From assembly GCA_963662945.1 (NCBI GenBank), contig OY759974.1, positions 1,184,001 through 1,248,000 of the forward strand: a stretch of DNA of 64,000 nucleotides, given 5' to 3'. The notes beneath the pieces are model-generated. The model searched no databases, had not been told where the DNA came from, and saw nothing but the letters and a program-made list of their open reading frames with translations. Position numbers and translations under genes: made by a program. Positions 2,608 to 20,597 of the stretch are shown in pieces (the first letter of the stretch is position 1; each line of letters starts with the position of its first letter). The DNA is from Arcobacteraceae bacterium. Lineage in GTDB: Bacteria; Campylobacterota; Campylobacteria; Campylobacterales; Arcobacteraceae.

Positions 2608-3906
2608 TTGTCAAAAAAACTTTTTATAGAAACTTTAGGTTGTGCTATGAATGTTCGAGATACAGAACATATCATAGCAGAACTCAATAAACACCAATCA
2701 TACTCTCAAACACAAAATCTAGAAGACGCCGATCTTATTATTATCAATACTTGTTCAGTCAGAGAAAAACCTGTCGCAAAACTATTTTCAGAACTGGGTG
2801 TTTTTAATAAAAAGAAAAAAGAAGGTGCTAAAATAGGTGTGTGTGGTTGTACTGCAAGTCATCTAGGTGAAGAAATTATTAAAAAAGCACCTTACGTGGA
2901 CTTTGTTGTTGGAGCAAGAAATGTTTCTAAAATCTCTGATGCTGTTTTAAACAAAGGAACTGTTGAGATAGATATAAACAATGATGAAACAAACTATGAT
3001 TTTGCTGATTATAGAAACTCATTATATAGAGCAAGTATCAATATCTCTTTAGGATGTGATAAAAGCTGTACTTTTTGTATTGTTCCTGCTACAAGAGGAG
3101 ATGAAATCAGTATCCCTAGCCAAATCATTCTCAATGAGATAGAAAAAGCTGTTGCTTCAGGTGCTATTGAAATATTTCTTTTGGGTCAAAATGTTAATAA
3201 CTATGGAAAACATTTCAGTGATAAAACAGAAACTACTAATTTCACACAACTCTTACAAATGATTAGTAAAATTAAGGGTGTACAAAGAATACGATTTACC
3301 TCTCCTCATCCATTGCATATGGATGATGAATTTATAGAAGAATTTGCTTCAAATCCTAAAATATGTAAACAAATACATGTGCCACTTCAAGCTGGAAATA
3401 CAAGAGTTCTTAAAGATATGAAAAGAGGTTATACTAAAGAATGGTTCTTAAATCGTTGTGAAAAAATACGAACTTTAGTTCCAAATGTACGAATCTCTAC
3501 AGATATTATTGTAGCATTTCCAGGGGAGAGTGATGAGGAGTTTCTAGATACTCTTGATATAATGGAAAAAGTAAAATTTGATGCTGTATTTAATTTTAAA
3601 TATTCACCAAGACCATTAACACCAGCTCAAAACATGCCAAATCAAATAGATGATGAAACTGCAACTAAAAGATTGCAAAGAGTAATTGAACTTCATAAAG
3701 AACATCAAGACGAGCATATGGAAAAATTAGTTGGTCAAACTTTAGAAGTACTATTTGAAGAATTAAAACCAAATGGAGAAGTTTTTGGTTTTAGTGATAA
3801 TTATGTGCAGGTATTTGTAAATGGAAGTGAGGAGCTACTTGGAAAAATTGTAAAAGTAAAAATTACAAGCGCAAGTAGAACTTCACTTAAAGGAGAAGTT
3901 GTCTAA
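2608..3906 (+). CDS. miaB: tRNA-2-methylthio-N6-dimethylallyladenosine synthase MiaB
   Basis: [40 protein letters not shown] start. Confidence 0.95.
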
Positions 3907-3920
3907 AGACATCAAAACTG

Positions 3921-4553
3921 ATGAAAGAAAAAATTAAACACTATTTATATTTTACAGTTCTCCCTTTTCTTCTCCAACTTATAGTAAGATTTATTCATCT
4001 TACAAATAAAAAAACATATCATTATCCAAATCAAAACTTTGACAATGAAAACTTAATTGTTGCAATGTGGCATGGTGATTTACTTATGCAACCGCTTAAT
4101 TATAGAAATTTCAAAAAAAATGGAAAAATAAAAGTTATTGTAAGTGTCCATAAAGATGGTGAAATTATACGAAAAGTAGTTGATTATCTTGGAGTTGGAG
4201 GATTAAGTGGTTCTTCCTCAAAGGGTGGAGCAAAAGCACTTATTGGTGCTATAAAAGCCTTAAAAAATGGTATTGATGTTGCTATAACACCAGATGGTCC
4301 AAGAGGTCCAATATATAGTATTGCTGATGGAATTGTACTTTTATCTCAAAAAACAAATACAAAAATTATAGTACTAAGTTCCATACCAACATCTTATTGG
4401 GAAATGAAATCTTGGGATAAATTTGTCGTACCAAAACCTTTTGGAAAAATAGATTTTTATGCAAGTGAACCTTTTAGTGTAGAAAATTTAGAACTAGAAG
4501 AAGCAAAACAACTTATTTACTCAAAAATGATGGAAAATCAACTAAAGAAATAA
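3921..4553 (+). CDS. DUF374 / LpxJ-like lysophospholipid acyltransferase
   Basis: WHG, SxHKDGE, GSSSKGG, TPDGPRGP, SWDKFVVPKPF motifs. Confidence 0.8.
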   Translation: MKEKIKHYLYFTVLPFLLQLIVRFIHLTNKKTYHYPNQNFDNENLIVAMWHGDLLMQPLNYRNFKKNGKIKVIVSVHKDGEIIRKVVDYLGVGGLSGSSSKGGAKALIGAIKALKNGIDVAITPDGPRGPIYSIADGIVLLSQKTNTKIIVLSSIPTSYWEMKSWDKFVVPKPFGKIDFYASEPFSVENLELEEAKQLIYSKMMENQLKK

Positions 4554-4555
4554 TC

Positions 4556-5383
4556 ATGAAAGAAAAATTTTATAAATACTTAGAGGAGTTTTGTGAGTAT
4601 TTATTAGATTTAAAAAACTACTCTCCTCTTACTGTGAAAACTTATAAACAATCAATTGAAAAAGCTATTAAAGCAAGTGAAATCTATGAAGAAAATGGGA
4701 AAACAATTTTTGATATTACAAAATTTAGAATAGAAATTGCTTCCTTAAATCCAAAAACAATCAATAAAAAGATATCAAGTATTAATAGCTTTGTAAGCTA
4801 TTTAGATTCCAAACATATTGATATAAAACTTGTAGGAAATAATACAATCAAATCTCCACAAACTCTTCCAAAACCAATACAAACTAAAAATATTTTTGAA
4901 AGTTTAGAGAATGCAACTTTAGAGGAAAAACTTATTATCGTATTTATTTATTCTTTTGGTGTTCGTATTTCTGAATTAGCAACTTTAAAACTAAAATATA
5001 TAAAAACAAATTCTATACAAGTTACAGGGAAAGGAAATAAACAAAGAGAGATACCTTCAAATCCTGTTGCAAATAATTTATTACAAGAATATCTTTCATT
5101 TTACACTCCATCAGAATATCTTTTTGAAGAAAACTCAAAAGCCCTTACAAAAAGACAAATACAATACAGACTTGAAAAAGCATTTCGTAAAATTGGAATC
5201 AAAGCAACTCCTCATCAATTAAGACATTCTTTTGCTACAGATTTGTTAAATGATGGCGCTAGAATCAATGATATTAGCGAACTTCTTGGGCATAGTAGCT
5301 TAAAAGCAACTGGAATTTATACTAAATTAACCACAAATACAAAGTTAAAACAGTATAATATTGCACATCCATTAAATAAATAA
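4556..5383 (+). CDS. Tyrosine recombinase, XerC/XerD-like
   Basis: Full catalytic set: GVRISE, GKGNK, HQLRHSFAT, LLGH, TGIYT. N-terminal YSPLTVKTY. Confidence 0.88.
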   Translation: MKEKFYKYLEEFCEYLLDLKNYSPLTVKTYKQSIEKAIKASEIYEENGKTIFDITKFRIEIASLNPKTINKKISSINSFVSYLDSKHIDIKLVGNNTIKSPQTLPKPIQTKNIFESLENATLEEKLIIVFIYSFGVRISELATLKLKYIKTNSIQVTGKGNKQREIPSNPVANNLLQEYLSFYTPSEYLFEENSKALTKRQIQYRLEKAFRKIGIKATPHQLRHSFATDLLNDGARINDISELLGHSSLKATGIYTKLTTNTKLKQYNIAHPLNK

Positions 5384-10538: not shown

Positions 10539-11284
10539 AACTTATACCAACTAGTGATGGTACACATACACTTTATAGTAAACAATTTGATCAACATTAT
10601 CATAGTGTAAAAGAAGGAGCATTAAATGAATCTCTTTCTAAACATGTTATTCCAGCACTTACTTATCATAAAAATAAAAAAGAACTCACAATTTTAGATA
10701 TATGTTTTGGTATTGGTTACAATAGCTTAGCCACATTATATTATGTACAACAAGAAAACCTCAATATCAAAGTAAATATTTATTCTCCAGAATTTGATTT
10801 AGATTTACTATATAGTATAAAAAATTTCACCTTTCCAAAAGAGTTTCAGTCACTTACACCAATTATCCAAGAAGTTTCACAAAATTTATATTACGAAGAT
10901 GAAAAGTGTAAAATTGAAATATATAATGGAGATGCAAGAGAGTACTTAAATATTTTATCTAATCAAAATATACTCTTTGATATAGTTTATCAAGATGCAT
11001 TTAGTAGTGAAGTAAATAGATTATTATGGACACAAGAGTATTTTGCACAAATTAAAAATATTTTAAATAATGATGCAATAATTACTACATATTCTATAGC
11101 TACTCCAATACGATTATCTATTTATAATAATGAATTGAGTATTTACGAATATAAACCTGATAATTCAAATCGCATTACCATTGCATTAAACAAAAAAGAG
11201 AGAGAAATTAATTATAAATATATAGATATGGAATTAAAAAAACAAAGAAACAAAACAGCAACAGCATTACAAGATAAGGAGTAA
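10520..11284 (+). CDS. MnmD/MnmC2-like tRNA mnm5s2U34 methyltransferase
   Basis: DGTHTLYS..HYHS..GALNES, ILDICFGIGYN, GDARE, YQDAFS, TTYS. Exact start uncertain (GTG 10520). Confidence 0.8.
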   Translation: MGSWTIELIPTSDGTHTLYSKQFDQHYHSVKEGALNESLSKHVIPALTYHKNKKELTILDICFGIGYNSLATLYYVQQENLNIKVNIYSPEFDLDLLYSIKNFTFPKEFQSLTPIIQEVSQNLYYEDEKCKIEIYNGDAREYLNILSNQNILFDIVYQDAFSSEVNRLLWTQEYFAQIKNILNNDAIITTYSIATPIRLSIYNNELSIYEYKPDNSNRITIALNKKEREINYKYIDMELKKQRNKTATALQDKE

Positions 11285-11286
11285 CT

Positions 11287-11583
11287 ATGTTTGAAGAAGA
11301 AAGAATCGTCAAAGTTTTTAGAGTAACTGTAAAAAAGGTTATAGAAAGACTTTTAGAGATACAAGAATGTCCTATTGCAGAGTTTAAAGATTTAGTTATT
11401 GAAAAATTTGATGGATATGACTATGAAGGAGAAGAGGAGCTTGTAGGTTTTGAATCTTGGGATGATATTAGTACAAATGGAGAATACAAACTTACAATAA
11501 AAATTAACCATGAACATGCATATGAATTCACTTTACATATAAAAAATCAAAATAATAAAATCACCATATTTAATGTATTATAA
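11287..11583 (+). CDS. Hypothetical acidic protein
   Basis: 98-aa ORF with strong SD (AAGGAG). No recognised motif. Confidence 0.6.
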   Translation: MFEEERIVKVFRVTVKKVIERLLEIQECPIAEFKDLVIEKFDGYDYEGEEELVGFESWDDISTNGEYKLTIKINHEHAYEFTLHIKNQNNKITIFNVL

Positions 11584-11650
11584 GAAGAATTAGACATATG
11601 ATATAATTAAAACTTATTTGTTTTTAAGCCAACCTTAAAAAAATATCTAT

Positions 11651-11679
11651 TACAATTACTTATGTATGACTACTAGTCA
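11651..11679 (+). promoter_or_regulatory. Putative sqr promoter -10 (TACAAT) with downstream palindrome TGACTA-C-TAGTCA
   Basis: TACAAT at 11651-11656; perfect 6-1-6 inverted repeat at 11667-11679. Confidence 0.45.
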
Positions 11680-11714
11680 GATTTTCAAAAAAAACTAAAA
11701 ATTAAGGGGTAGAT

Positions 11715-13184
11715 ATGGCAAGATTAATTGTACTTGGAGGTGGTGTTTCTGGTCACACAGCAGCAACATTTGCTGCAAAGTGGTTAGGAAGTGCTCATGA
11801 AGTTGTGGTTGTAACACCAAATTCTAAATGGAATTGGATACCATCAAATATTTGGGTGGGTGTTGGTCAAATGACACCAGAGGATGTAACATTTGATTTA
11901 GCACCTGTTTATAAAAAAGCTGGAATCACTTACAAACAAGCGAAAGCTGTATCTATTCACCCTAATGGTAAAGAGGGAAGTGATAAAGAGTTCGTAACTA
12001 TTGAATTTACTAATCCTGAAAACGCAGGTCAAACTGAAGAGTTAGAATATGACTACATTATCAATGCAACTGGTCCAAAACTAAACTTTGGAGCAACACC
12101 AGGACTAGGTGAAGGAAGTAACTTAGGTGAACATACAGTGTCAGTTTGTACAGCAGATCATGCACACCATGCGAGTCATGAATTAGAAAAATGTATCAAA
12201 AAAATGAAAGAGGGTCAAAGACAAAAATTCTTAATTGGAACTGGTCACGGTATGTGTACTTGTCAAGGTGCTGCTTTTGAGTATATTTTTAATATTGAAC
12301 ATGAATTAAATAAAGCTGGGGTAAGAGATTTAGCAGATATCAAATGGATATCAAATGAATCTTTCTTAGGGGACTTTGGTGTTGGTGGACTTCATATGAA
12401 AACTATGGGATACGCTGTTAGTTCTAAAATATTTGCTGAATCACTCTTTACAGAAAGAGGGGTAGACTGGATTATCGGTGCTCATGTAAATAAAGTAGAA
12501 GCTGGTAAGGTACATTATGAATTACTTGATGGTTCTATGGGTGAAGAAGAGTTTGATTTTTCTATGCTTATTCCTCCATTTGCAGGTGTAGGTATAAAAG
12601 CTTATGATAAAGATGGTTCTGATATTACAGATACTATTTTTGCTCCAAATGGTTTCTTAAAAGTTGATGCGAACTATGCTGCTGGTGCTTATGAGAACTG
12701 GAAAGCTTCAGATTGGCCAAAAACATATCAAAATCCAACTTATGAAAATATCTTTGCTTGTGGTATTGCTTTTGCACCACCGCATACAATCTCTAAACCA
12801 ATGAGCTCTCCAAATGGAACTCCAATCAACCCTACACCTCCTAGAACAGGTATGCCATCTGGTATTATGGGAAAAACTGTTGCACATAGTATTTGTGACA
12901 GAATTCTAAAAGGGAAAGATGCTCCACTACATGAAGCTAGTATGGCAGAGATGGGTGCAGCTTGTGTGGCTAGTGCTGGTAAAGGTATATTTGATGGAAC
13001 AGCTGCTGCTATGACTATCTATCCTGTTGTTCCTGATTTTGAAAAATATCCAGGAACTGGTAGAGATACTGATTATACTTTTGGTGAAATTGGTCTTGCT
13101 GGGCATTGGATTAAACATATTTTACATTACCTATTCCTATGGAAAGCAAAACTAAAAATGGGATGGACTTTAATTCCAGAATAA
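11715..13184 (+). CDS. sqr: Sulfide:quinone oxidoreductase, type IV (SqrD-like)
   Basis: GGGVSGHT FAD motif, WIPSNIWVGVG, SVCT, TCQGAAFEY, PPRTGMPS, MGAACVASAG, C-terminal LAGHW..IPE. Resembles Chlorobium SqrD as recalled. Confidence 0.9.
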   Translation: MARLIVLGGGVSGHTAATFAAKWLGSAHEVVVVTPNSKWNWIPSNIWVGVGQMTPEDVTFDLAPVYKKAGITYKQAKAVSIHPNGKEGSDKEFVTIEFTNPENAGQTEELEYDYIINATGPKLNFGATPGLGEGSNLGEHTVSVCTADHAHHASHELEKCIKKMKEGQRQKFLIGTGHGMCTCQGAAFEYIFNIEHELNKAGVRDLADIKWISNESFLGDFGVGGLHMKTMGYAVSSKIFAESLFTERGVDWIIGAHVNKVEAGKVHYELLDGSMGEEEFDFSMLIPPFAGVGIKAYDKDGSDITDTIFAPNGFLKVDANYAAGAYENWKASDWPKTYQNPTYENIFACGIAFAPPHTISKPMSSPNGTPINPTPPRTGMPSGIMGKTVAHSICDRILKGKDAPLHEASMAEMGAACVASAGKGIFDGTAAAMTIYPVVPDFEKYPGTGRDTDYTFGEIGLAGHWIKHILHYLFLWKAKLKMGWTLIPE

Positions 13185-13230
13185 GAATTAGGGTGATTAA
13201 TACAATAAAAATATAAAAAGGAAAAATACA

Positions 13231-13401
13231 ATGGCAAAAGTTAAAGAAGAAGAAAAAAACATTAAAGCATATAGTCAAAATTTTACAACAATGACTCCTG
13301 GTCCATTTGCAAAACGAATGAGAACTTGTGTTATCTGGCAATTTATCAGATTTATAATTATCAACCTTAAAATGATAATCGTTGTTGGTAAAAGTCACTA
13401 G
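13231..13401 (+). CDS. Small 56-aa protein downstream of sqr (not in ORF track)
   Basis: SD AAAAGGA, then MAKVKEEEKNIKAYSQNFTTMTPGPFAKRMRTCVIWQFIRFIIINLKMIIVVGKSH*. Fills the gap to the next gene. Confidence 0.75.
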   Translation: MAKVKEEEKNIKAYSQNFTTMTPGPFAKRMRTCVIWQFIRFIIINLKMIIVVGKSH

Positions 13402-13403
13402 TT

Positions 13404-14213
13404 TTGGTTAAAGATATTATTACATACCCAACACCTCCAAGTGTTGAGTATGCAACAGATGTAAGAATTTTTGATGAAAATTTATTTACTTTAATCGAAG
13501 ATTTAAAAGATACGATTAACGCAAATAAATTAGATGGACTTGCTGCTTATCAAATAGGAAATTATTTCAATGTGGTTGTGATCAAACAAGGTGATGAGTT
13601 TTTAGAACTGATTAATCCTAGAGTTATAAATCCTATTGGTAAGGTAACAACGGAAGAGACAACAGCTTATTTTCCTGGACTGAGTGCAAAAGTGCAAAGA
13701 TATGAAAAAATAAGTCTCATATATCAAGATAGAGAAGCGAATCAACACTCCCTTAAGGCTGATGGAGAATTATCTATATTAATCCAACGTAAGGTCGATT
13801 ATACTTTTGGTTCTACTTTTTTAAATAAGCTCTCAAAAGATGAGAAAAAAAGATTTGAAAAAAAACTTGAATTTGGTTCTAATATTGCTATTCCTGAAAG
13901 TTGTCCAATAGTATCATATAAAGATTATCTCAACAAACTTTCAAATATTTTGTTAGTGGTTATTGCACTATTATTAGTTGGATCATTTTTTGTTAGTGAT
14001 GAGACCGCTTTAGAAAATATATGGGATTATCAAAGATATATATCATATGCAACAGTAGTTAATGGTTTTATATATCTAATATATGGCTATTTTGAGGGGA
14101 AAAGATATAGTTCATGTACTAGTTGTCAAATTGGTAATCTTGTAGGAACTTTAATAATAAGTTTTATCAAACTTACAATATTAATGATACTTTCTTACTT
14201 CTTAGTTGCATAA
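13404..14213 (+). CDS. Degenerate peptide deformylase-like domain fused to a 3-TM domain with CxxC
   Basis: IITYP, GLAAYQIG, LINP are present, but EGCLS is ETTAY and QHExDH is QRKVDY. C-terminal TMs with SCTSC. Confidence 0.75.
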   Translation: MVKDIITYPTPPSVEYATDVRIFDENLFTLIEDLKDTINANKLDGLAAYQIGNYFNVVVIKQGDEFLELINPRVINPIGKVTTEETTAYFPGLSAKVQRYEKISLIYQDREANQHSLKADGELSILIQRKVDYTFGSTFLNKLSKDEKKRFEKKLEFGSNIAIPESCPIVSYKDYLNKLSNILLVVIALLLVGSFFVSDETALENIWDYQRYISYATVVNGFIYLIYGYFEGKRYSSCTSCQIGNLVGTLIISFIKLTILMILSYFLVA

Positions 14214-14251
14214 ATTTAATCAAATATAATATTTAGAATTGGAGAACAGAT

Positions 14252-14764
14252 ATGAAAGATAATAATAGTTATTGGAATCCCCTTATTGCTGGATTTTTGC
14301 TTGGTACTGCACTATTTATAAGTTTTATGATAGCAGGTCAAGGAATGGGAGCAAGCGGTGCATTTGCAAGGCTTACAGCACAAGTTACATACCTTTATGA
14401 TGCAACTTTTGCAACAAATAGTTATGTAGCTCCATATTTACGAGATGGTAATGCATTAGCAAATTGGACAGTTATTCAAGTTGTTGGTATATTTATAGGC
14501 GGCTTTATTAGTGCAGCACTTGCAGGAAGAATAAAACAGTCTATTGATAGAGGTGATGGATACCCAATATATAAAAGATTATTTTGGGCTTTTTTAGGTG
14601 GTATGCTTATAGCAGCAGCTACAAGGCTTGCTCGTGGATGTACTAGTGGGCAAGCACTTGATGGAGCAGCAACATTTTCTGTTGGTGCTTGGATTTTTAT
14701 GTTAGCGGCTTTTGGTGCTGGCTTTTTACTAGCTCCATTGTTTAAAAAACAATGGAATATGTAA
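14252..14764 (+). CDS. YeeE/YedE-family sulfur compound transporter subunit
   Basis: WNPLIAG, GMGASGAF, GIFIGGFISA, RLARGCTSG. About 4 TMs. Own -10 TATAAT at 14225. Confidence 0.85.
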   Translation: MKDNNSYWNPLIAGFLLGTALFISFMIAGQGMGASGAFARLTAQVTYLYDATFATNSYVAPYLRDGNALANWTVIQVVGIFIGGFISAALAGRIKQSIDRGDGYPIYKRLFWAFLGGMLIAAATRLARGCTSGQALDGAATFSVGAWIFMLAAFGAGFLLAPLFKKQWNM

Positions 14765-14775
14765 GGAGTTTTGTT

Positions 14776-15372
14776 ATGTATCCATTATATACAACTGGGG
14801 CAATCACAACAAATGAAAATTATCTTTATGCAATTTTTATAGGGATAATGTTTGGATTTATACTTGAACGTGCTGGTTTTGGAAGAGCAAAACATATTGC
14901 ACCAGTATTTTATTTTAGAGATTTAAGAGTATCAAGAGTAATGGTAAGTGCAATACTTACAGGTGCTTTCTGGATTACATTAGCTACATACAATGGATGG
15001 ATAGATTACAATCAAGTGTTTATACCAGCAACTTATGTATGGCCTTATTTAGTAGGTGGTGCAATATTTGGTATAGGTATGGTTATGTCAGGATGGTGTC
15101 CAGGAACTGCTGTAGTAGGTATAGCAAAAGGTAAAATTGATGCAGCAGTATTCTTATTTGGAGTACTAGCTGGTATGTATGTTTATTTTGATATTTTTGA
15201 TAATATTGCACACTTTGCAAACTCTGGATATCTTGGGAAATATACTATTGATAAACTTATTGGAGGAGATATCTATTCATCATTTATTATTACTGTAATT
15301 ATGGGAATTTGTCTTGCAATATTTATGCATACAATGAAAGCAATTAGAGAAAAAAAAGAGGGGGAAAATTAA
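14776..15372 (+). CDS. YeeE/YedE-family sulfur compound transporter subunit
   Basis: ATG 14776 after AAGGAG. FGFILERAGF, GGAIFGIGMVMSGWCPGT. Confidence 0.85.
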   Translation: MYPLYTTGAITTNENYLYAIFIGIMFGFILERAGFGRAKHIAPVFYFRDLRVSRVMVSAILTGAFWITLATYNGWIDYNQVFIPATYVWPYLVGGAIFGIGMVMSGWCPGTAVVGIAKGKIDAAVFLFGVLAGMYVYFDIFDNIAHFANSGYLGKYTIDKLIGGDIYSSFIITVIMGICLAIFMHTMKAIREKKEGEN

Positions 15373-15373
15373 A

Positions 15374-15748
15374 TTGAAATTAATTTCAGCAACAGTAGGG
15401 GTCATTTTACTAATAGCAGCGTTACTTTTATCTTATTTAGCATCATCAAATGGTGAAGCAATGTTAGCAAAAAAAGATGCCAAAGTAGTAGAATATGTAA
15501 ACAAATCAAAAGAAGCATTAGCAGTTGAGAATATAGAAAGTGCTTTAAAATATGCTAAATTAGCAATAGAAGTTGATCCTAAAAACAACAAAGCTTTTCA
15601 AGCATATGATGCAGTATTAAAATTTAAATATAAACCAAAAGAATCAGATGCAGTAAACACTCTACAAAGAGTACAACCATCTTCTGATGAAGATGAAGAA
15701 GATGAAGATGCTGCAAGTGGAGTTATCAAAGTAGATATGGGTTGTTAA
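15374..15748 (+). CDS. Membrane-anchored TPR-like protein with acidic linker and C-terminal Gly-Cys
   Basis: N-terminal hydrophobic helix, ALKYAKLAIEVDPKN TPR-like motif, DEDEEDED linker, ends DMGC. Confidence 0.65.
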   Translation: MKLISATVGVILLIAALLLSYLASSNGEAMLAKKDAKVVEYVNKSKEALAVENIESALKYAKLAIEVDPKNNKAFQAYDAVLKFKYKPKESDAVNTLQRVQPSSDEDEEDEDAASGVIKVDMGC

Positions 15749-15771
15749 TACAACTCATAGTATACTAATAA

Positions 15772-17535
15772 ATGAAATTTTTCTTTTTAGTACTATCTTT
15801 TACTCTTTTTTTATATTCTAACCAACAAAAAGACAATTGTCTTTCTTGTCATCAAAATACAACCCCAATAGACAACTATCACCCTTATGAAGAATTTGGC
15901 TGTGCCTCATGCCATGGAGGAGATGCAAAAGCGATTTCAAAAGTAAAAGCCCATCAAAATATTGTTTTAAATCCAAGTAGGCTAGAACATGCAAGTATGT
16001 TTTGTGGGAAATGTCATCAAGAGATTATTAATCGTGTTGATAAATCTATTATGAATAATATGCATGGTGTCTTAGATGTACTAAAATACCAATTTGGAGA
16101 GACAAAAACTATAGAAAAAACAACAGGAATTAAGTATTTAAAAAATAAGCCAACGGAACAACAATCTTTAGCTGAAGATCATTTTAGTAAACTTTGTGCA
16201 GCTTGTCATATAAACCAAAAAGAAGAGATATTTAAAAATACAGGATTTAGTGAAAGAGGTGGTGGCTGTGTTGATTGTCATAGAGTTGAAGATGGTAAAA
16301 AACTTGAAATTAAAAATGATATTTTAAAGCTCAACCATCCTAAACTCTCTACTAAAATTCCAAGTTCAAATTGTTTAAAATGCCACAATCGTTCTAATCG
16401 TATAGGACTCTCTTATTTTGGACAATTTGAAAGTGAGGGCTATGGCACTCCTTATAAAAATGGAAAACTCACCCATAAAATAGATAAAGATAGATACTAC
16501 TATGAACTTCCAGCAGACATCCATCATAGAAGTACAAAAATGGATTGTATAGATTGTCATACAGAAGCTGGAGTTATGGGAGATGGAAAACATCATGCCC
16601 ATATGGAAGATGCTGTAGATATTAGTTGTAAAGATTGTCATAATCCACAATTTAAACCATCAAATCAATTTGGACTTGCAGGAATGTTAACTGCATTAAA
16701 TGGAAATATCCCTTATTCTACAAAAATTGCTACTACAAAAAAGAAAAATTCGCCAATTTATAATTTACAAAAAGATGATTCTAATATGACTTTTTATAGA
16801 AAACGAGATGGGAAAGCTTTTGATATTTCAAAAATGAGTGATGCTCCTTATCATATTTCTAAAAACCACGAAAGATTAGATTGTACCGCTTGCCATAGCT
16901 CGTGGATACCTAGCTGTTATGGTTGCCATGAAGTATACTTTAAAGATGGGCAACAATATGATTGGATAAAACATAAAAAAACAAAAGGAAAATGGGTGGA
17001 GCTTAGAAGTTATTTACGATATGAGTCCCCTGCCCTTGCTATTGGGTACAATGAAAAGATTATGCCAACTGCTCCTGGCTGTCAAGTGATTGCAACTATC
17101 TATGATAAAGATATAAAAAATGATGAGTTTCACTCTTTTGCCTTTGCTGCTTGGGATCCACACACAACACAAAAACAATCAAGAACTTGTGTAGACTGTC
17201 ATTTTAATCCTCAAACATTGGGACTTGGAGCTGGTATTTTAGATATAAAAGAAAATAATGTCACTTTTACTCCTTACTATCAAAGTAAAGAAGATGGACT
17301 TCCTATTAACTATTCCTTAGATTCATTAATTTCAAAAGAAGGACAACAATTTCAAAGTTTTTCAAGAGAAAAAGCAAGAGGGTTTAATAAACAAGAGGTT
17401 ACTAAAATTATTGAAACGTATAAGTGTATAGTTTGTCATAATAAGTGGGAAGACCCTATTTATAAAGATTTTCAAAAAAGTAAAAAACTTTTTTATGAGA
17501 AAAAAACTTCTTGTAGTAAAGAGATACAAAAATGA
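15772..17535 (+). CDS. Exported multiheme cytochrome c (12 CxxCH)
   Basis: Signal peptide. CLSCH, CASCH, CGKCH, CAACH, CVDCH, CLKCH, CIDCH, CKDCH, CTACH, CYGCH, CVDCH, CIVCH. Confidence 0.9.
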   Translation: MKFFFLVLSFTLFLYSNQQKDNCLSCHQNTTPIDNYHPYEEFGCASCHGGDAKAISKVKAHQNIVLNPSRLEHASMFCGKCHQEIINRVDKSIMNNMHGVLDVLKYQFGETKTIEKTTGIKYLKNKPTEQQSLAEDHFSKLCAACHINQKEEIFKNTGFSERGGGCVDCHRVEDGKKLEIKNDILKLNHPKLSTKIPSSNCLKCHNRSNRIGLSYFGQFESEGYGTPYKNGKLTHKIDKDRYYYELPADIHHRSTKMDCIDCHTEAGVMGDGKHHAHMEDAVDISCKDCHNPQFKPSNQFGLAGMLTALNGNIPYSTKIATTKKKNSPIYNLQKDDSNMTFYRKRDGKAFDISKMSDAPYHISKNHERLDCTACHSSWIPSCYGCHEVYFKDGQQYDWIKHKKTKGKWVELRSYLRYESPALAIGYNEKIMPTAPGCQVIATIYDKDIKNDEFHSFAFAAWDPHTTQKQSRTCVDCHFNPQTLGLGAGILDIKENNVTFTPYYQSKEDGLPINYSLDSLISKEGQQFQSFSREKARGFNKQEVTKIIETYKCIVCHNKWEDPIYKDFQKSKKLFYEKKTSCSKEIQK

Positions 17536-18779
17536 TGAAATATTTTCTTATTCTAATCCCTCTATTTCTATTTAGTAATGAATGTTTAACTTGTCATCCT
17601 AAAAAAATGGAACAATGTGCAAATTCAAATCACTATACACTTAAAAATGCAATCAACATTACACGAACTACTTGGGGAGTGAAGAATAGTAATGTAACTC
17701 TTCAAACACTACCTCATCCAAGTAATAACATAAAAAAACCACAAGATTTAGTTGATGATTTTTTACGAAGAAAATGTTTAAAATGTCATCTTACAAGTCA
17801 AAATATCAACCAAACAAATAATCTATGTCTAGCTTGTCATAATCCACACAAAAATAACTTAGATAGTACCAAAGCAAAACCTACACAAGAGAAGTGTCTT
17901 AAATGTCACAACAATGAATTTATAGGAACTGATTATCTTGGACTTTTCCCACATGATTATGATAAAGCATATAGAAGTCCACTTACAAAAGATGGTTACT
18001 ATCCAGAGCGACCTTATGGGATAGATTTTCATCACCTAAACTCTGATATTCATCATCAAAAAGGTTTATCTTGTGTCTATTGCCATAAAAAAAATAAAAA
18101 TAAAAGTTGGGAAAATAAAGTTGATTGTAAATCATGTCACGACAACTTAACACAGAATAATCATAAAAGCTATCATAATACTCTTTCCTGTAATAGTTGT
18201 CATAGTTCTTGGAATATAAGTAGTTATGAACTTAATGTTTTAAGAGATGATACGAAAAACTATAAACAATGGAAAAGACTCACTGTACAAGAAGATGAAT
18301 ATCTTGAAAATTTTTTAAATAAAGCTCTTAAAAACCCAGAAACTAAACCTCAAATGCCTGATTATCTTACAAATACATTGGAAGACGGTGTTTGGTATAG
18401 TGGTTGGAAATTTAGAAGATGGGAAAACTTTTTTTTAGTTAATAGTGATGATGAAACAATCAAAATTGCAAAACCAATGTTTCAATATAGAATTAGTTAT
18501 AAAGATAAAAATGACAAAATTATTCTTGATGATATTAATATGATAGATGGTAAAAAAATAGAAGTTTTTTTACCGAAAACACCACACACCATAACAAAAA
18601 AAGCAAAATCTTGTGAAATGTGTCATGAAAATAAAATTATGTTAGATAGAAACATTATCAATAAAAATTTATTTCAAGGAACTATTTTAAAAGGTTCACC
18701 ATTATCTAAAAAACAATTAGAAAAACTCCAATCACCACTTTATAAAAAGGAGCGAGCAAAAATACTTTTTTCTCACTAA
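17532..18779 (+). CDS. Exported multiheme cytochrome c (8 CxxCH)
   Basis: Signal peptide. CLTCH, CLKCH, CLACH, CLKCH, CVYCH, CKSCH, CNSCH, CEMCH. ATGA overlap with the upstream gene. Confidence 0.9.
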   Translation: MMKYFLILIPLFLFSNECLTCHPKKMEQCANSNHYTLKNAINITRTTWGVKNSNVTLQTLPHPSNNIKKPQDLVDDFLRRKCLKCHLTSQNINQTNNLCLACHNPHKNNLDSTKAKPTQEKCLKCHNNEFIGTDYLGLFPHDYDKAYRSPLTKDGYYPERPYGIDFHHLNSDIHHQKGLSCVYCHKKNKNKSWENKVDCKSCHDNLTQNNHKSYHNTLSCNSCHSSWNISSYELNVLRDDTKNYKQWKRLTVQEDEYLENFLNKALKNPETKPQMPDYLTNTLEDGVWYSGWKFRRWENFFLVNSDDETIKIAKPMFQYRISYKDKNDKIILDDINMIDGKKIEVFLPKTPHTITKKAKSCEMCHENKIMLDRNIINKNLFQGTILKGSPLSKKQLEKLQSPLYKKERAKILFSH

Positions 18780-18782
18780 AAG

Positions 18783-20597
18783 TTATAAAGCTGGTTTTAA
18801 ATAATCAAGTTTAATAAGTATTTTTACAACCTCTTTAAAAACTGGAACAGCTGAGTTTGAAGCATAATAATAATACCACTTATCTCCCCTATTTACTGGG
18901 TCGTTTACTGTTACCCCCACAGTATATCTATGCTCTTTATCATTTACAAATCCAAAAAAACTACTCATATATTTTCTTTGATATTTCCCTTGTTCAACTA
19001 CATTTGCTGTACCTGTTTTTCCACCAATTTCAAGGCCATCTATTTGTGTTTTTTTTCCGGTTCCTTTTTCTACAGTTTGTATTAACATCTTTTTCATAAA
19101 ATCAGCAGTTTTTTTTGATATAACTTGTGGTTCTAGAATTTGTGCATTTTTATTTGTAAGATAAGGAGTAACTATTTTTCCATCATTATTAAATACAGAG
19201 TAGGCTTTTAATACTTGCATAAAAGTAGCTGTAATACCTTGCCCATAAGAATCTGTAGCTTTAAAAACGTTATCTTCACCCTTATCCTCACCAGCTCTGT
19301 ATTGATATAGTTTATGTATAATACCTCTTGATTCAAAAGGCAAATCTATCCCTGTTTTTTGCGATAATCCAAAATTTAGGTATCCATTATAAAATTGTTC
19401 TGCACTTAATCTATTTGCAATAGTAAGCGTCCCTATATTGCTAGAATAGATAATAATATCTTCTAACGTAAGATAATTTTTTTCAAATTGATGATCATCT
19501 TTAATAGTAAATCGCCCTATTTTATACTTTCCTCGTGGGAATTCCCCTTTTGAATTTGTTTTCCCAGTATTATGTGCGAAAAAAAGTTCATTTTTCTTTA
19601 CTTTTCCTGCATCTACTGCTAAAGATATAGCAATGGGTTTAATAACAGAACCTGGTTCAAAATTATATTCAATGGCATTGATTTTTAAATGTTCTATCTC
19701 ATTTTGTTTAATATCAGATGGATTATATCTATTTGAACTAGCAAGAGAGAGAATTTTTCCTGTTCTACTATCCATAACAGAAACTAGTATCTCTTGAGCT
19801 TCAAATTTTTCTTTATATCTATCTAACATTAGTTCAATATTTTTTTGAAGTTTTAAAGGGATTGTTATAGTTACATCATCACCATCCTTTCTTTTTATGA
19901 TTTTTGAGTCTTTATTAAAAATAATATAAGAAAGAATATCTTTTTCCCCTTCTAGGAGTCCATCTTGAAAATTGTTTAGTTTTTGATTAAACTCTCTTTC
20001 AATTCCATTAATACCATTAACTCTTTGTTTTCCTTGTTTGGAATTTTGCTCTTTTATATATCCCAAAACTGGTGTTAAAGTATCTTTATAGGGATAAACT
20101 CTTTCCTCCCCTGTTTCATATATATCTAATCCATGAATATATGTATTTCCATTTCGTTTAATTGGAACAAATACATCTAAAGCCCTTAATTTAAAAGACA
20201 AAGATTTTAACTCCTTGGCTGTTTTTTGATCAATAGTTCTTGAAAGAATTGTATAACCAGTTTTTTCTGATAATTTTTCTCGTAACTCTTTTTTAGGAAT
20301 ATCACTATATATTGAAAAAAGTGTAATAAATAATTCTTTTTTATCTTTATCAATTGAACGGGTATCAACAGAGGCTGAGTAGATTTTTCGAGAAGTTCCT
20401 ATTTTAAATCCATCTCCACTATAAATATTACCTCGTACTGCTAAATCTTTTTTAGCATAAGTTAAAGATGGCAATTCTCTATTATCTTTAATTGTGTTAA
20501 TTATAGAAAAGATTAGTATTGTAAAAAAGACAAATATCAAACCAACAAGTATCAAAATCTTTTTCATTACGGGTAATTGTTGTTTTTGTAAAGACAA
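18783..20597 (-). CDS. ftsI: Class B penicillin-binding protein (FtsI/PBP3-like)
   Basis: N-terminal TM, RGNIY, R.YP, EPGSVIKP (SxxK), SSN, KTGT. Divergent from ftsW. Confidence 0.85.
   Translation of the reverse strand: MSLQKQQLPVMKKILILVGLIFVFFTILIFSIINTIKDNRELPSLTYAKKDLAVRGNIYSGDGFKIGTSRKIYSASVDTRSIDKDKKELFITLFSIYSDIPKKELREKLSEKTGYTILSRTIDQKTAKELKSLSFKLRALDVFVPIKRNGNTYIHGLDIYETGEERVYPYKDTLTPVLGYIKEQNSKQGKQRVNGINGIEREFNQKLNNFQDGLLEGEKDILSYIIFNKDSKIIKRKDGDDVTITIPLKLQKNIELMLDRYKEKFEAQEILVSVMDSRTGKILSLASSNRYNPSDIKQNEIEHLKINAIEYNFEPGSVIKPIAISLAVDAGKVKKNELFFAHNTGKTNSKGEFPRGKYKIGRFTIKDDHQFEKNYLTLEDIIIYSSNIGTLTIANRLSAEQFYNGYLNFGLSQKTGIDLPFESRGIIHKLYQYRAGEDKGEDNVFKATDSYGQGITATFMQVLKAYSVFNNDGKIVTPYLTNKNAQILEPQVISKKTADFMKKMLIQTVEKGTGKKTQIDGLEIGGKTGTANVVEQGKYQRKYMSSFFGFVNDKEHRYTVGVTVNDPVNRGDKWYYYYASNSAVPVFKEVVKILIKLDYLKPAL

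Follow-up and report, generated by a model that had tools for sequence, protein, structure and literature searches.

The window analyzed here, a stretch of 64,000 nucleotides (nt) of contig OY759974.1 from an Arcobacteraceae bacterium (positions 1,184,001 to 1,248,000 of the forward strand), contains a small gene whose product of 124 amino acids (aa) carries its sole Cys, residue 124, at the very C-terminal end. Both this open reading frame (ORF) and its placement between genes for YeeE-type transporter halves (14252-15372) and multiheme cytochromes (15772-18779) agree with an initial annotation of the locus (Table 1), which had interpreted the protein as a swinging arm passing persulfide between transporter and cytochromes. 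Here, we show that the small protein is part of a genuine family, conserved and as yet without a name, in which one residue is plainly critical and the sulfur transport context is consistent; as to the mechanism of the small protein, we infer that it might serve as an exported thiol arm of the adjacent transporter.

Table 1. The small gene, the parts of its product, and neighboring features in the window
Feature	Positions	Strand	Evidence and remarks
Gene for exported tetratricopeptide repeat (TPR) protein with C-terminal Gly-Cys, 124 aa	15374..15748	+	TTG start, TAA stop; ORF read from sequence
Hydrophobic N-terminal helix, residues 3-27, signal anchor or signal peptide	15380..15454	+	Uncharged run of 25 residues, hydrophobic core 21
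Helical domain with one TPR motif, residues 38-88	15485..15637	+	AlphaFold2 (AF2) model, TPR profile match; A57 and A64 invariant, Y41 nearly invariant
Disordered linker, residues 89-119, acidic in the window protein, variable in relatives	15638..15730	+	AF2 block predicted local distance difference test (pLDDT) score 54-59
Conserved tail VDMGC, residues 120-124: acidic, hydrophobic, Gly, Cys-COOH	15731..15745	+	56-row alignment
Shine-Dalgarno-like GAGGGGG, 9 nt 5' of the TTG, within the 3' end of the YeeB gene	15358..15364	+	Read from sequence
YeeA, split YedE/YeeE-type half, 170 aa, counterpart of the C-terminal half of S. thermophila YeeE	14252..14764	+	PF04143; conserved Cys130 in RGCTSGQ
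YeeB, split half, 206 aa, equivalent to the N-terminal half of YeeE	14752..15372	+	PF04143; conserved Cys116 in GWCPGT
Sulfide:quinone reductase (SQR)-type flavoprotein	11715..13184	+	Weak: PF07992; SQR_III model 36 bits
Membrane-anchored peptide deformylase homolog without catalytic residues, directly upstream of YeeA	13404..14213	+	PF01327, E 3.3e-30
ExtM-like 12-heme c-type cytochrome	15772..17535	+	NF040943, E 1.1e-89, 301 bits vs 800-bit cut-off; 12 CxxCH
ExtN-like 8-heme c-type cytochrome	17532..18779	+	74 bits vs 200-bit cut-off; 8 CxxCH

The start codon of the small gene lies 2 nt past the TAA stop of the YeeB gene, a spacing that suggests translational coupling of the two. Use of TTG as the start is supported by the homologs, which carry ATG at the aligned position, and the gene closes with the codons GTA GAT ATG GGT TGT TAA. 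A scan of positions 11200-19200 found 48 promoter-like sites compared to 43.4 +/- 6.0 in shuffled sequences, and 5 terminator-like sites compared to 2.9 +/- 1.5.

The anatomy proposed in the initial annotation, namely, a membrane anchor, TPR-like helices, an acidic linker, and Gly-Cys at the end, is supported by the sequence and by an AF2 model built from a 56-row alignment (mean pLDDT 83.7), except that the N-terminal helix may be either an anchor or a cleaved signal peptide. In this model, a long helix spans residues 2-50, so that the hydrophobic N terminus is continuous with the soluble part; further helices comprise residues 54-67 and 72-86, and the protein is disordered from residue 87 to the end (block pLDDT 54-67). 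The predicted disordered residues 89-124 include the run SSDEDEEDEDAASG. As judged by profile comparison, the helical part is a single TPR motif, because positions 42-82 of the family profile match consensus TPR proteins, with one copy only of the 34-residue helix-turn-helix, and because long TPR repeat proteins appeared as side matches in the exhaustive profile search. In line with this assignment, the ESM Atlas neighbors of the window protein were generic TPR clusters only, and nothing in the PDB reached E <= 0.001 in a Foldseek search with the AF2 model, where TPR domains headed the weak matches. No Pfam or NCBIfam family covers the window protein, which produced only sub-threshold TPR-like matches, e.g., VpsP with 19.8 bits versus a cut-off of 125 bits.

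Conservation singles out the end of the protein. The M-G-C end was kept in all 13 first homologs. The exhaustive profile search returned 485 proteins at E <= 0.001, and the best 150 of these, together with five proteins from an earlier search, yielded 57 short family members, 56 of which have G-C at the end, the remaining one being a frameshifted copy. The alignment of 56 rows (A4), from which P0153 (a 182-aa TPR protein) and P0060 (the frameshifted copy of P0042) were left out, has only four invariant positions, A57, A64, G123, and C124. Cys is the last residue in 44 of the 56 sequences, is followed by Ile in 11 (...MGCI), and by Ile-Tyr-Phe in one. At position -2 relative to Cys, Met occurs in 41, Leu in 10, Glu in 3, and Phe in 2 sequences; position -1 is Gly throughout, and position -3 is Asp or Glu in 38. 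The window protein and 31/56 relatives have a single Cys, and extra Cys residues are present in 25/56. The linker varies in length from about 14 to 94 residues by a rough estimate, and its mean pairwise identity is 0.21 versus 0.35 for the TPR domain. Among 26 Campylobacterota genome loci, all 25 complete ORFs end in GC (19 MGC, 5 LGC, and 1 FGC); the 26th locus (L027; L numbers denote individual loci) is cut by the sequence end and stands outside this count, and a 17-residue match in Marinoscillum (L036) was excluded as a generic TPR match. Dozens of loci have the ORF together with its Gly-Cys end, which puts both far beyond chance. No selenocysteine variant of the terminal Cys turned up, all incomplete ends being sequence ends, though no dedicated search for such variants was made.

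A second, much larger branch of homologs was reached via three outlying members. These proteins, mostly from Desulfobacteraceae or Thermodesulfobacteriota metagenome-assembled genomes (MAGs), bear only the source names "hypothetical protein" or "tetratricopeptide repeat protein" and combine a signal peptide-like N terminus and a Pro-rich linker with the TPR hairpin known from the first branch, and they close with a sequence such as ...F-K-I-V-E-D-E-G-C. A profile-profile comparison of both branches (hhalign) gave a probability of 99.1% and an E value of 1.9e-18 over 87 columns. The window clade retains a piece of the longer tail motif, as seen from ...GVIKVDMGC compared to ...FKIVEDEGC. The 80 metagenome loci contributed 70 distinct ORFs, of which 65 have the EGC end, four are cut by sequence ends, and one ends in DEDC; the EGC end is likewise present in 120/120 of the best of 459 database clusters at E <= 1e-5. 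Invariance of the terminal Gly-Cys combined with a variable linker, which the initial annotation had put forward as a check on its proposal, is thus found in the 56 closer relatives, and these clusters keep the Gly-Cys as well. The DEDC protein (L113:1760-2224, ...EEDEDC), with Asp in place of Gly, is the sole exception to Gly-Cys among the complete ORFs. The AF2 model of a Desulfobacterota-type representative comprises an N-terminal helix (residues 2-20), a low-confidence break, a folded domain (residues 37-94), and a disordered tail. Docking of the tail on the TPR domain of the same protein was considered and discarded, as neither AF2 model places it there (tail pLDDT 54-67 in the window protein and 35-50 in the Desulfobacterota-type protein). 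A second Cys opens the folded domain (...ALCAKM..., C40 in L088) in at least 90% of 21 distant-branch sequences (alignment A6) and is absent from the window protein; it possibly provides the distant branch with a Cys pair together with the terminal Cys.

The N terminus has Lys or Arg followed by 17-31 uncharged residues. The helix break in the Desulfobacterota-type model and a loose A-x-A-like pattern near the end of the N-terminal helix, found in 15/21 distant-branch sequences, would fit a cleavable signal peptide in this branch. In the AF2 model of the window protein, no break separates this helix from the domain, pointing to an anchor that is not cleaved off. Most simply, the TPR domain and the tail would in either case reside in the periplasm, alongside the rhodaneses and cytochromes encoded nearby.

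The closest genomic link of the small gene is to the transporter. YeeA and YeeB were assigned to the two halves of S. thermophila YeeE following PMC11582611 (this and the other papers cited are drawn upon in excerpt). YeeB keeps the equivalent of Cys91 (Cys116 in the window protein) and has Gly in place of the outer Cys22 of YeeE; YeeA carries the equivalent of Cys293. In the Campylobacterota genome loci, YeeB is encoded directly upstream of the small gene in 25/26 and YeeA in 24/26 cases, the misses being contig starts, and in the relatives the start of the small gene abuts or overlaps the YeeB stop. Among 61 related genomes, a strong YeeB match (E <= 1e-71) was detected in nine, exactly the nine that encode the small protein, a count that is descriptive only, as these genomes are kin; eight weaker matches represent other paralogs, in genomes lacking the small protein. 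A bare three-gene cassette stands among unrelated genes in L014, L017, L025, and L026, and a MarR gene precedes the cassette in L011, L012, and L031. In L026 (4872-5997; a Sulfurospirillum MAG), the YeeA and YeeB genes are both split by frame breaks next to an intact small gene, which may mean that the transporter is decaying or that the assembly is wrong at this point.

In the distant branch, the neighborhood was surveyed in 53 loci with at least 1,300 nt downstream of the small gene and, for the upstream side, in 58 loci. The next gene on the same strand encodes a YedE-like protein of about 400 aa in 30 loci, TusA in 6, a Rieske protein in 6, and none of the queried families in 11; YedE-like, TusA, or Rieske is therefore the next gene in 42/53. 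Directly upstream, a tandem rhodanese was found in 15/58 loci and PsrB in 5. The fused YedE-like partner (e.g., L068:501-1697 and L095:5340-6536) is circularly permuted relative to S. thermophila YeeE, with the C-terminal half preceding the N-terminal half, and is thus colinear with YeeA followed by YeeB; it retains the Cys22 equivalent. Two gene arrangements stand out. One is rhodanese - small gene - YedE-like - TusA - DsrE-like, sometimes followed by Rieske - cytochrome b (ExtP-like) - ExtM, and contains the published YTD cluster (yedE-tusA-dsrEFH, type II), whose cytoplasmic proteins transfer sulfur in vitro (PMC13293266, PMC9751629). The other is rhodanese - TorD - PsrC - PhsA/PsrA - PsrB - small gene - Rieske - cytochrome b - ExtM - ExtN. 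Sulfur-trafficking proteins, i.e., YedE/YeeE-type transporters, rhodaneses, TusA, DsrE, and Psr/Phs-type enzymes, thus accompany the small gene in three locus architectures. In eight loci (L086, L093, L097, L098, L107, L110, L112, and L116), a TusA-like gene follows the small gene at a distance of at most 42 nt, and no YedE-like gene was detected in the flanks examined.

We refer to these proteins as the TPR-Gly-Cys family, characterized by a predicted export helix, one TPR hairpin, a variable disordered linker, and a C-terminal Gly-Cys with up to 1-3 further residues; the window protein is a member as judged from its sequence and model. Its genes are found beside a YedE/YeeE-type transporter or other periplasmic sulfur metabolism genes in the window, in 25/26 genome loci, and in 42/53 distant loci.

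What might such a protein do? The anatomy, the invariance of Gly-Cys, and the strict synteny and co-occurrence with the transporter are observed; a periplasmic location, sulfur loading, and hand-over would have to be added for the reading that we favor, that of an exported, tethered thiol arm of the YedE/YeeE-type transporter feeding sulfane sulfur into the channel cysteine relay from the periplasm, to which we would give an even chance of being correct. The small protein would then complete a split YedE/YeeE-type sulfur transporter as its third component. Led into or across the inner membrane by the N-terminal helix, it would have its one TPR hairpin, followed by a flexible acidic tether (about 35 residues), in the periplasm beside the YeeA/YeeB channel. 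The tip, ...acidic-hydrophobic-Gly-Cys-COOH, could act as a mobile thiol that loads sulfane sulfur as persulfide or polysulfide, likely from polysulfide or S0, from SQR products, or, in most relatives, from a periplasmic rhodanese, and presents it to the channel cysteine relay, YeeB Cys116 and YeeA Cys130. Split YedE1E2 imports zero-valent sulfur via one essential Cys per half (PMC10812762), and YeeE has YeeD docked at its cytoplasmic exit, where YeeD serves as a "fourth cysteine" (PMC11073785); the tip might be the outer counterpart of this fourth cysteine, which YeeD/TusA provides at the channel exit. ExtM/ExtN, and the Psr/Phs and Rieske/cytochrome b modules of other lineages, would be optional redox partners of the same periplasmic sulfur pool. 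With respect to the carrier role between transporter and cytochromes proposed in the initial annotation, the arm, the suggested chemistry, and the transporter (25/26 loci) are retained, and the cytochromes are lost as a fixed partner, considering their presence in only 12/26 loci and the four bare cassettes. The hand-over of persulfide to the cytochromes is not supported; these proteins move electrons, not persulfide.

A complex prediction that took one alignment each for YeeA, YeeB, and the small protein gave an interaction score (ipSAE) of 0.50 (runs 0.51, 0.49, and 0.50) versus 0.07 for the best of three controls, with runs agreeing in at least 80% of contacts and a partner pLDDT of at least 66. 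In calibration, the mark was reached by 116/157 solved complexes and 2/215 mismatched pairs. The prediction lends weak support to a physical contact of the small protein with YeeA/YeeB.

Several observations speak against the thiol arm. A passing score of 0.50 would more often be wrong than right unless the pairing is likely beforehand; in the calibration, only 18 of the 157 solved complexes passed with scores of 0.60 or less, along with both passing mismatches. Persulfidation of Cys124, the periplasmic position of the C terminus, and contact with YeeA/YeeB are predictions at this stage, and crude signal peptide measures did not separate an anchor from a cleaved peptide. Of the 53 distant-branch loci, 23 have something other than a YedE-like gene in the next position, and one subgroup has the small gene between PsrB and Rieske with no transporter in view; because of this, the protein cannot be solely a transporter subunit. 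The transporter halves score best in NCBIfam with YedE/FdhT models linked to selenium, albeit at values far short of the cut-offs, and the genome of the window lacks a homolog of either rhodanese type that trails the gene in relatives. We also considered that the tail Cys generally replaces the missing Cys22 of YeeE. This fits split YeeB, which has Gly at this position, but the fused partner of the distant branch keeps the Cys; the idea was rejected as a general rule, and a stand-in role in the split form only is possible.

The synteny and invariance described above would equally apply if the acidic tail plugged a positively charged outer mouth of the channel and the Cys bonded reversibly to a channel Cys, via a (per)sulfide or disulfide, thereby switching transport according to the periplasmic sulfur or redox state. 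As an anion-rich peptide ending in a carboxylate, the tail would suit such a role, the second, nearly invariant Cys in the folded domain of the distant branch could park it by a disulfide, and the complex prediction (0.50 versus 0.07 for the best control) lends weak support here as well. However, the frequent rhodanese neighbors fit transfer better than gating, the PsrB/Rieske subgroup has no transporter in view, TusA is the next gene at some loci, and the AF2 models leave the tail undocked from the domain of the same protein; we regard gating or sensing as unlikely. The same arm might instead carry selenium or tellurium, e.g., as selenotrisulfide or perselenide, in YedE/FdhT-type selenium uptake or selenite handling. 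The transporter halves match selen_YedE_FdhT and seleno_YedE best, and the fused partner matches selen_YedE_FdhT as well, yet the scores of 51, 27, and 140 bits, the last being that of the fused partner, compare to a curated cut-off of 350. NCBIfam assigns ExtM/ExtN to a "selenite/tellurite reduction operon," and the Geobacter ext cluster affects selenite reduction (PMC5877670), but more recent work describes the enzyme of this cluster as a polysulfide reductase serving S0 respiration (PMC13510729). Moreover, the neighbors seen, with no search aimed at selD or other selenium genes, are SQR, rhodanese, TusA, DsrE, and Psr/Phs proteins. Transport of selenium or tellurium thus appears quite improbable to us.

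Redox chemistry without any delivery to the channel would be compatible with the multiheme cytochromes, Rieske/cytochrome b proteins, and Psr-type enzymes that recur nearby. The Cys would then take the place of a low-molecular-weight thiol while being bound to a protein; as a nucleophile or reductant, it would open up S8 or polysulfide or take part in disulfide exchange, with ExtM/ExtN or other redox modules regenerating it. YedE1E2 membranes indeed speed persulfide formation from a thiol and S0 (PMC10812762). The bare three-gene cassettes have no redox partner, though, and this scenario, which we consider highly improbable, overlaps the thiol arm and is hard to separate from it by sequence. 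Lastly, Met at position -2 and Cys form a soft-metal pair in 41/56 sequences, and His/Cys heme ligation is known from related sulfur enzymes (PMC13510729), so that the terminal Met/Leu-Gly-Cys could bind Cu, Fe, or Zn or ligate a heme of ExtM/ExtN as a small subunit. Position -2 is nevertheless Leu, Phe, or Glu in 15/56 sequences and Glu throughout the distant branch, and no metal-handling genes were seen in the scanned loci; the version with a heme ligand or cytochrome subunit is further weakened by the lack of ExtM/ExtN in 14/26 loci. We see hardly any prospect for metal or heme binding. An origin as a ribosomally synthesized and post-translationally modified peptide precursor was dismissed, as no modifying enzyme was seen in any scanned locus.

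Comparison to known systems sets the family apart. SoxY has a GGCGG motif, a Tat (twin-arginine translocation) signal, and SoxZ as a partner. It is a periplasmic protein with a conserved C-terminal "swinging arm," in which a Gly-flanked Cys carries the sulfur (PMC11237559), reminiscent of the disordered tail with Gly-Cys in 56/56 sequences of the small protein, and it works alongside c-type cytochromes. In contrast to the beta-sandwich of SoxY, the AF2 model of the small protein is an all-helical TPR; its Cys is the last or penultimate residue, its partner would be a membrane transporter, and it gave no SoxY Pfam match at E <= 0.1. No Sox models matched the scanned neighbors, although no search aimed at soxZ or soxAXB was made. 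In DsrC/TusE, a flexible C-terminal arm carries sulfur on its penultimate Cys. This is the position of Cys in the 11 relatives ending in ...MGCI, and the second conserved Cys of the distant branch adds to the likeness; however, the small protein has no DsrC family match and an unrelated fold, and it has an N-terminal export helix that, judged by its sequence, would place it outside the cytoplasm, in which DsrC resides. YeeD/TsuB and TusA are likewise small single-Cys partners encoded beside a YeeE-type transporter, and YeeD docks on the channel (PMC11073785), but they act from the cytoplasm and combine an alpha/beta fold with a CPxP motif, whereas the small protein lacks both and looks exported. 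The window protein gave no TusA, SirA, or YedF match in Pfam or NCBIfam. Since TusA and the small protein flank the same YedE-like gene in the distant branch, they are not substitutes for each other. With no SoxY, DsrC, or TusA model matching, the earlier view of a protein non-homologous to the known carriers holds.

Split YedE1E2/PmpAB transporters resemble YeeA/YeeB in having two halves with one conserved Cys each, and the published pairs import zero-valent sulfur (PMC10812762, PMC11582611). They are described as two-gene systems with a TusA-like partner or none, the excerpts of these two papers mentioning no third exported subunit, and the halves in the window are longer (170 and 206 aa versus about 130 aa). 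ExtJ is a small exported protein of unknown function from the Geobacter extHIJKLMNOPQS cluster, which also encodes a rhodanese and ExtM/ExtN (PMC5877670, PMC6148476); the hypo_ExtJ model (NF040942) did not match the window protein at E <= 1 and had no match in the genome. No description of the family was found in the full-text literature on YeeE/PmpAB transporters, C-terminal cysteine sulfur carriers, and the YTD cluster, supplementary gene maps being outside this scope. The excerpts of PMC11582611, PMC10812762, PMC11073785, PMC13293266, and PMC9751629 do not mention it, and a term search of the main text of PMC13293266 retrieved neither "TPR" nor "tetratricopeptide"; the YTD gene maps in the supplements of PMC13293266 and PMC9751629 may draw the gene.

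It is tempting to speculate that this widespread, unannotated Campylobacterota/Desulfobacterota-type family provides YedE/YeeE-type importers with the sulfur donor that they have been missing on the periplasmic side, a "zeroth cysteine" that catches S0 or polysulfide at the tethered C-terminal end and passes it on through the channel; this is a tentative generalization that we would sooner expect to fail than to hold. Sulfur import into the cytoplasm has been called poorly understood (PMC11582611), and the gap addressed here, one acknowledged in the literature, is the route of reduced sulfur from the periplasm to and into YeeE/YedE-type transporters. If the generalization holds, the family would mark and partly determine sulfur entry into the cell in sulfur oxidation and disproportionation. 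Confirmation would add a third, non-homologous carrier with a cysteine on a flexible arm to SoxY and DsrC and would improve the interpretation of YTD-type and Ext-type gene clusters in metagenomes. The candidate is small, soluble minus its anchor, and has one obvious functional residue.

Apart from the transporter genes, the neighborhood of the small gene is variable. A periplasmic-looking rhodanese is encoded downstream in 18/26 genome loci; these rhodaneses, which fall into two PF00581 types of roughly 195 and 325 aa, have signal-like N termini. In most relatives (L002, L004, and L005 were compared), the rhodanese gene lies between the small gene and the ExtM gene, where the gap in the window is only 23 nt; the genome of the window has 10 other rhodanese domain matches. 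An SQR-type flavoprotein homolog occupies the same position as that in the window in L010, L023, and L024.

The peptide deformylase homolog encoded upstream of YeeA carries a fused membrane domain, which contains a CTSC motif, at its C-terminal end and has lost all metal-binding and catalytic residues; compared to H. pylori Pdf, EGCLS is replaced by ETTAY and HEIDH by RKVDY. This conserved pseudo-enzyme is also encoded directly upstream of YeeA in L005-L008, L023, and L024. A role in processing the small protein was rejected in view of the missing catalytic residues and its detection in only 2/26 genome loci.

The ExtM and ExtN matches in the window are clear, yet well under the NCBIfam equivalog cut-offs. 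No ExtKL/MccSep, Rieske, or cytochrome b gene adjoins this pair within the window; in the distant-branch loci L057, L068, and L095, Rieske and ExtP-like cytochrome b genes are located upstream of ExtM. Near a small gene/ExtM pair in L039, a gene on the minus strand (3858-5213) encodes a phosphate-porin-like outer membrane protein (PF07396, weak), which recalls the ExtI porin of the Geobacter cluster.

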